Positions 2,591-3,033 of a stretch of 26,113 nucleotides of DNA are shown one piece after another (the first letter of the stretch is position 1; each line of letters opens with the position of its first letter). This stretch comes from Escherichia coli (GTDB taxonomy: Bacteria; Pseudomonadota; Gammaproteobacteria; Enterobacterales; Enterobacteriaceae). A program made the position numbers and the translations under genes. Under the pieces are notes generated by a model. The model made no database searches. It was not told the origin of the DNA and was given only the letters and a program-made list of their open reading frames with translations. The stretch lies in NCBI RefSeq assembly GCF_003334255.1, contig NZ_QOWU01000063.1. One strand, 5' to 3'.

Positions 2591-3033
2591 GTGAACACAA
2601 TACACCTGCGCTGTCTCTTCAGGATGAATCCCCTGGTCTGGTGCCTGCGGGCTGATGTTGCAGCAGAGCTTAGGTCACTTAGACGCTACTATCATTTATC
2701 CAATGGCATGGAATCGAAATCAGTCGATACCCGCAGTATATATCGTGAACTGGGTGCAACGCTGAGTTACAACATGCGCCTGGGGAACGGTATGGAAATG
2801 AACCCTGGCTGAAGGCGGCTGTGCGCAAAGAATTTGTCGATGATAACCGGGTGAAGGTGAATAATGACGGTAATTTCGTCAATGATTTGTCGGGCAGACG
2901 TGGAATATACCAGGCAGCTATTAAAGCCTCATTCAGCAGTACGTTTAGCGGACATCTCGGGGTGGGGTATAGCCATGGTGCCGGTGTGGAATCCCCGTGG
3001 AACGCGGTGGCTGGTGTGAACTGGTCGTTCTGA
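2591..3033 (+). pseudogene. ycgI: Autotransporter beta-barrel C-terminal remnant (ycgI-like), frameshifted
   Basis: Two consecutive track ORFs (2591..2812 and 2821..3033) in different frames together read as the last ~140 residues of an autotransporter barrel: …YRELGATLSYNMRLGNGMEMNP / (W)LKAAVRKEFVDD…GVGYSHGAGVESPWNAVAGVNWSF. The frame break is near 2805-2815 (CCCTGGCTGAAGG). There is no N-terminal passenger domain. Confidence 0.7.

Follow-up and report, generated by a model that had tools for sequence, protein, structure and literature searches.

The ycgI stub beside minE in Escherichia coli as the probable deletion remnant of a YpjA/EhaD-type autotransporter gene

Positions 2690–3033 of the window, by which we mean the whole stretch of 26,113 nucleotides of Escherichia coli DNA analysed here (assembly GCF_003334255.1, contig NZ_QOWU01000063.1), correspond to E. 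coli ycgI, an already catalogued pseudogene, and represent a case of ordinary gene decay. It is very probable that ycgI is an inert remnant, produced by one deletion of ~3.1 kb and degraded afterwards along different paths in different lineages. Sequence comparison identifies its progenitor as a paralogue of ypjA/ehaD, of which a minority of strains still have an intact copy. A sequence-only reading of the same DNA had described a decayed, ycgI-like autotransporter C-terminus with a frameshift of its own, and this description is borne out by the PGAP annotation and by matches to TIGR01414 and PF03797. It had also counted ~140 barrel residues from position 2591; the segment is indeed the end of an autotransporter barrel, but one of 114 residues that begins at 2690.

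RESULTS

The remnant and its extent

The following features define the remnant.

2690–3033, plus strand: ycgI remnant (blastn and alignment to long alleles, TIGR01414, PF03797, PGAP pseudogene at the equivalent coordinates)
2689–2690, no strand: deletion junction (alignment to long alleles)
2798–2800, plus strand: frameshift site, ancestral ATT (or GTT) minus one T leaving AT, then G (allele alignment)
2810–2812, plus strand: premature TGA resulting from the frameshift (sequence and ORF reading, allele alignment)
2591–2812, plus strand: chimeric GTG ORF of 73 aa (ORF list, alignment, family search)
2821–3033, plus strand: GTG ORF of 70 aa in the ancestral frame, ending GVNWSF (ORF list, TIGR01414)

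Compared with the long alleles that occupy the same locus in other strains, 2690–3033 amounts to 114 codons and a stop codon, less one base, and it aligns with residues 1023–1136 of the intact 1136-aa allele of strain ECOCN22. Before the family searches, the missing base was put back in the 114-aa conceptual translation of this segment. The repaired translation matched TIGR01414 (E 2.3e-21, model positions 319–432 of 432) and Pfam PF03797 (E 2e-10, positions 152–254 of 255), the family match being confined to the C-terminal third of the barrel models. The C-terminus (...AGVNWSF, with the stop codon at 3031–3033) retains a beta-signal ending in an aromatic residue, as had been recognized from the sequence alone in the GVNWSF end of the second ORF. 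A PDB sequence search with the stub returned one weak match, to the C-terminus of Bordetella Vag8 (E 7e-4), which is consistent with the end of an autotransporter barrel and adds nothing to it.

In a 100%-identical genome, RefSeq/PGAP annotates the equivalent of 2690–3033 as 'autotransporter outer membrane beta-barrel domain-containing protein; frameshifted; incomplete; missing N-terminus', and the stub carries the PGAP pseudogene flag in all genomes inspected. The surrounding region (2115–3100) is present at 100% identity in many E. coli genomes and has a match in 5422 of the 5426 complete genomes. The gene order in the window is ycgH'–ymgD–ymgG–ymgI–ymgJ–ycgI'–minE–minD–minC; ycgI lies 3' of ymgG–ymgI–ymgJ and is convergent with minE–minD–minC, according to the ORFs of the window and to the RefSeq annotation of the 100%-identical genome. 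In a screen of strain UTI89, C1357 was called 'a pseudogene (the homolog of ycgI in E. coli K-12)' (PMC6206680).

A deletion that took most of the gene

Read against the long alleles, the junction joins DNA ~29–30 nt upstream of the ancestral ATG to codon 1023, with a single base, T2690, as microhomology. The missing DNA amounts to 3095 nt by comparison with the intact ECOCN22 gene and to 4363 nt by comparison with the gene of strain 24A16CRGN010, and covers the ribosome-binding site (AGAGGATGAAATTTATG) and the ATG, then the signal peptide and the passenger, and finally the front of the barrel. The barrel has lost ~60%, and ~38% of the beta-domain is all that the stub retains. With a 60-nt probe centred on the junction, counted when covered at 80% or more, 4517 of the 5426 complete E. 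coli genomes (83%) proved to have the junction, among them K-12, O111 RM9322, UTI89 and SMS-3-5; in a K-12 MG1655 genome the 60-mer is 100% identical. The junction sequence is the same in all sampled strains of phylogroups A, B1, B2 and F. We infer that the deletion was a single event.

Dating of the deletion outside E. coli by means of an 18-nt junction sequence was dropped, because a scan of one genome per species gave four matches against an estimated nine or so expected by chance for an 18-mer in 298 Gb; the scan is uninformative for E. albertii, E. fergusonii and Shigella. Two of the four matches lie in DNA that bears no similarity to the window, and the other two in contigs that resemble E. 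coli, from MAGs with the labels Collinsella and Clostridiales. These 'Collinsella sp.' MAG and 'uncultured Clostridiales' contigs contain the ycgI junction at 96–98% identity to the window and are evidently mis-binned Escherichia contigs.

Comparison with strains that are intact at this locus, as the sequence-only reading had proposed, turned out as that reading would have it. Seven long alleles were compared (O157:H7 Gim1-1, 24A16CRGN010, LHM10-1, EC556, ECOCN22, CE2050 and AF34), three of which (ECOCN22, CE2050 and AF34) encode an intact AIDA-type adhesin of 1126–1136 aa exactly at the ycgI locus. The remaining four are broken, by IS1203, by ISCro1 together with a frameshift, or by frameshifts alone. 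A view held after four alleles, that every long allele is a pseudogene, was dropped once three further ones were found intact. The 5' end of a long allele was seen at the ycgI locus in ~4 of 50 evenly spaced rows. The intact alleles begin with a signal-peptide-like N-terminus (MNRISRYYFHRSVLSLLIAAMIYAPPGMTAF in ECOCN22), which falls inside the deleted 3095 nt, and Pfam places AIDA repeats at residues 94–530 of the intact protein, Pertactin at 641–759 and the beta-domain at 875–1114. Over 1022 aa, the intact ECOCN22 protein (WP_029701745.1) shares 79% identity with K-12 YpjA; its N-terminal part is divergent.

DNA retained on either side

The DNA that flanks the stub contains the following features.

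2332–2689, plus strand: retained 5' flank of the lost gene (88.9% identity to the DNA upstream of K-12 ypjA)
2116–2289, minus strand: ymgI, annotated small ORF of 57 aa, outside the ypjA-paralogous segment
2390–2575: ymgJ, annotated small ORF within the retained 5' flank
2536–2655: annotated 39-aa ORF, often named 'ATPase' in databases, within the retained 5' flank
3046–3073, plus strand: terminator-like hairpin predicted by folding, AAACUGCGC-UUCG-GCGCAGUUU, then UCGUUU, 13 nt past the stop codon

The G+C content is 31% in 2115–2331 and 41% in 2332–2689. The AT-rich stretch 2115–2590 had been suspected of holding small genes, and ymgI, ymgJ and the 39-aa ORF are indeed annotated there, but in a small sample of ten aligned alleles and paralogues they look unconstrained as proteins, and their protein-coding status seems doubtful. 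Every difference in ymgI alters the protein, and its start codon is lost in one allele; ymgJ is frameshifted or stopped in 4 of the 10; the 39-aa ORF shows only nonsynonymous differences from its paralogue at the ypjA locus, its start codon is gone in UTI89, and its frame is broken in SMS-3-5. The length of the T-run at 2496–2501 varies between alleles. According to published work, ymgI and ymgJ are without regulator or function assignments (PMC12356324). The last 160 nt ahead of the junction are ~95% conserved with the ypjA leader, which looks like constraint at the DNA or RNA level, or gene conversion, rather than protein coding.

On the other side, the stub is separated from minE by a spacer of 370 nt (3034–3404) that is without annotation. 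The hairpin at 3046–3073 consists of a 9-bp stem and a UUCG loop followed by UUUUCGUUU, with a folding energy of -19.9 kcal/mol in context (z = -3.8 against shuffles). The sequence-only reading had taken it for a good terminator belonging to the remnant; the putative hairpin is strong, but it was not flagged by a simple consensus terminator scan, because part of the T-run was counted into the stem. The same hairpin stands behind the long alleles at the ycgI locus and lies outside the segment shared with ypjA, which ends 10 nt past the stop codon, and we regard it as the locus's own putative terminator, at which any transcript from the retained upstream region would end. On the minus strand, terminator-like hairpins are found at 3380–3353, just past minE, and at 3129–3112 (CCCGCCGTAACTGGCGGG, then a T-run).

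These flanks raise the question of whether the DNA has been kept for a non-coding role, either insulating the convergent minCDE operon from transcription that comes from the retained promoter region of the adhesin gene or giving rise to a stable ncRNA. A strong hairpin directly 3' of the stub, the convergence of minE on the spacer and the survival of ~360 nt of the former upstream region, with its conserved last 160 nt, would all suit such a role. So would an overexpression screen in UTI89, in which the enrichment reaches from minCDE to the ycgI homologue, for which its authors offer linkage as an alternative (PMC6206680). We nevertheless consider a non-coding role very improbable. An Rfam search of 1900–3700 at E up to 1 returned only a chance-level rsmX match (E 0.96), with no family at E below 0.9, and the hairpin stem contains uncompensated changes in the B2, SMS-3-5 and MEI3A alleles, which fit relaxed constraint. 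Moreover, little of the stub is left in MEI3A, and its upstream part has been replaced in GIMC1409 and strain 118, without apparent consequence in any of them, and the minus strand already has its own terminator-like sites (3380–3353 and 3129–3112).

Reading frames and later lesions

Stubs that are still in frame read GGT ATG GAA ATT GAA CCC, and the window reads GGT ATG GAA AT- GAA CCC. The two frames noticed from the sequence alone are thus real, but the lesion is the T lost at 2798–2800, not at 2805–2815, where the split had been placed and where the TGA is found. The 73-aa ORF starts with 33 codons that were once 5' non-coding DNA, continues with 37 native codons, of which the final one is incomplete, and closes with 3 out-of-frame codons; codons 1–33 align upstream of the start codon in the strains that have kept the gene. 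On its own, this ORF gave no match in the family search, and its sequence has been deposited as BAE76389.1 and under other accessions, named 'ATPase' or hypothetical. The 70-aa ORF alone still matches TIGR01414 (positions 365–432 of 432, E 2.3e-9). A 60-mer with the K-12-type frameshift occurs exactly in at least 1690 genomes, laboratory K-12 derivatives included, and with one extra base in another 902; the figure of 1690 is a minimum, because other junction-bearing genomes are too divergent within the 60-mer for megablast. In lineages that do not have the frameshift, a 147-aa ORF is open from the GTG at 2591, and its sequence is present on at least 1000 contigs.

Other lesions differ from strain to strain. 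UTI89 and Z0117EC0055 (B2-type) lack one G near 2705, and Z0117EC0055 has an additional one-base deletion in the stub; MEI3A-1023 has lost ~275 nt of the 3' part; the stub of GIMC1409 is cut by IS1, and strain 2452 has an IS1 insertion in the region; in O111 RM9322, 503440 and SMS-3-5 the stub is still in frame. The aligned alleles show that these secondary lesions are independent between lineages, and the stub itself would be neutral. Against neutral decay count the presence of the stub in most of the species and the 147-aa ORF, a widely deposited sequence that could be translated. Among stub-only variants, 12 nonsynonymous and 12 synonymous changes were counted, in 10 sequences only and confounded by recombination; this is fewer nonsynonymous changes than strict neutrality predicts, which gene conversion from functional ypjA could mimic. 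The count was set aside, the sample being too small and recombination a confounding factor. The DNA 5' of the stub is replaced by ompT, ISEc8 and prophage-tail genes in strain 118 and by sitABCD, IS1 and prophage genes in GIMC1409, so that the 5' side of the stub appears to be a recurrent point of rearrangement or insertion.

The same lesions bear on whether the stub, or the 147-aa in-frame ORF, might encode a functional small protein, such as a mini-OMP or a beta-signal peptide. With at least three independent frameshifts or deletions in large lineages, the native signal peptide deleted, so small a share of the beta-domain left and no family match for the 73-aa ORF, this is scarcely credible, even though the ORF is open in O111 RM9322, 503440 and SMS-3-5, the C-terminus (...NWSF) is a canonical aromatic beta-signal and GGTGAG lies 5–10 nt ahead of the GTG at 2591. 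In the new N-terminus, MNTIHLRCLFRMNPLVWCLRADVAAELRS, the only hydrophobic stretch contains charged residues and a proline. A curated K-12 'OMP-ome' does include YcgI, with a model that is a deformed, broken barrel (PMC7383365), and the deformation can be put down to the fact that only the C-terminal stub of the barrel is left. What makes a type Va autotransporter functional, namely a Sec signal peptide, a passenger, a complete barrel and an uninterrupted frame, is missing from the remnant. Since the export signal and most of the barrel are gone, the stub is not a stand-alone outer-membrane protein; the sequence-only reading had named a functional protein of this kind as the finding that would speak against decay, and the loss of signal peptide and barrel, together with lesions that differ by lineage, points the other way. 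It would be a very long shot that in-frame lineages (e.g. O111 and SMS-3-5) translate the 147-aa ORF from the retained leader into a regulatory or interfering product. If this were true, a 147-aa product with an OMP beta-signal could affect envelope stress or the neighbouring min system, and the ORF would count as a new gene that arose from the scar of a deletion.

DISCUSSION

In the history that we propose, the interval between ymgJ and minE was originally occupied by a gene paralogous to ypjA/ehaD, for an adhesin of the type Va autotransporter class. In its intact form this protein combines a signal peptide with AIDA repeats, a pertactin-like domain and a 12-strand beta-barrel. One deletion by illegitimate recombination at a single-base microhomology would have removed ~3.1 kb: the last 29 nt of the leader, in which the ribosome-binding site lay, together with the start codon and the DNA for the signal peptide, the whole passenger and about the first 60% of the barrel. 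The deletion allele is now the majority allele of the species. A stub that can neither be exported nor form a barrel would be expected to drift. The lineage of the window would then have lost the T at 2798–2800, which split the stub into two frames, and other lineages would have acquired different lesions.

The K-12 ypjA locus aligns with window positions 2332–2690 at 88.9% identity and with 2690–3043 at 95.5%. The block shared by the two loci takes in the coding region, ~360 nt ahead of it and 10 nt behind it, and is sharply bounded (2657–7635 of the K-12 DH1 ypjA locus against 2332–3043 of the window), and at the ypjA locus it abuts a recombinase (pinH-like) fragment; repeats were looked for at its edges in the window (2332 and 3043) and none was found. 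One of the long alleles, 4.7 kb in size, finds ypjA at 93–95% identity in thousands of genomes, and the long alleles as a group are 93–97% identical to ypjA across their 3' two-thirds and 80–87% at the 5' end. In about half of the complete E. coli genomes, the 5' ends of both copies failed to find a full-length match. Searches against NCBIfam brought no equivalog model for YpjA up to its cut-off, so that the name YpjA/EhaD rests on PGAP annotation and pairwise identity.

We attach next to no weight to the proposal that the stub and its 5' flank act as a homology patch and that the long alleles were re-acquired by recombination with ypjA-type genes instead of being ancestral: homology to the ypjA locus covers 359 nt upstream and 354 nt downstream, the O157 long allele resembles K-12 ypjA (97.1%) more than the K-12 stub (95.9%) at its 3' end and the long alleles are mosaic (80–87% identity at the 5' end, 94–97% further on), but their 5' 360 nt and upstream region are only 83–87% identical to ypjA, hence not recent copies, and the proposal describes the history of the stub and not its function, selection for such a role not being indicated.

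If ycgI is an inert deletion remnant, as we hold, the consequences are mainly for annotation. The extent of ycgI is now set at 2690–3033, the start at 2591 being an artefact of the deletion, and YcgI should come off lists of K-12 outer-membrane proteins, in one of which, a curated one, it has been counted (PMC7383365). The locus also illustrates, cleanly and on a small scale, how E. coli loses an adhesin, and it could serve as a phylogenetic marker.

A second autotransporter pseudogene lies at the start of the window.

74–1374, plus strand: C-terminal part of ycgH, autotransporter pseudogene (98% identity to intact ECOCN22 ycgH), cut by an IS1 end

ECOCN22, CE2050 and AF34 have an intact ycgH (887 aa) across ymgD–ymgG from the ycgI locus, and the gene is wholly absent from strain 24A16CRGN010. 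In the window, one frame of ycgH is open to 1348 and the barrel end (...VGLKYKF, stop at 1372–1374) is in another, which points to a frameshift around 1295–1305, in a G-run. Positions 1–77 hold the terminal ~75 nt of IS1 (...ACTAAATCAGTAAGTTGGCAGCATCACC), which abut ycgH from ~74; an assignment of these first 77 nt to the end of IS5 was rejected, the BLAST annotation being IS1. The IS1 end and ycgH are never contiguous at this point among the best-matching complete genomes listed (always 2–3 pieces), so that the insertion may be specific to the source strain. The sequence-only reading had taken the two remnants as signs of a decayed adhesin-rich island; ECOCN22, CE2050 and AF34 confirm two once-working adhesin genes, but 'island' is too strong a word, and neither mobility genes nor boundary repeats were seen at the ycgI locus.

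The closest known counterpart of the window copy is ycgI of K-12 (b4521, 'autotransporter homolog, C-terminal fragment'): it has the same position (ymgJ–stub–minE), the same junction, the same frameshift and the same PGAP wording. Relative to the complete genomes searched, the strain of the window differs only by the IS1 end inside ycgH at the start of the window. Like ycgI, ycgH is a type Va autotransporter gene that some strains have kept intact and that has degenerated in K-12-like strains, but it belongs to a different autotransporter lineage, with its best NCBIfam similarities to the C-termini of ECSE_1600, MisL and AIDA-I, and it has decayed by a frameshift, an internal stop and, here, an IS1 insertion, whereas ycgI has decayed by a large deletion. 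As regards YpjA of K-12 (WP_010723187.1), the DNA of the stub and the last 345 nt of ypjA show 95.5% identity, and PGAP names the intact alleles at the ycgI locus YpjA/EhaD. The gene ypjA itself, however, occupies another chromosomal locus, beside the CP4-57 genes ypjF and yfjZ, and the two loci have separate terminators. YpjA has 1526 aa as against 1126–1136 aa for the proteins at the ycgI locus, the number of repeats differs, and the N-terminal 120–360 residues are divergent between YpjA and the long alleles at the ycgI locus, of which the window copy represents the C-terminus only.
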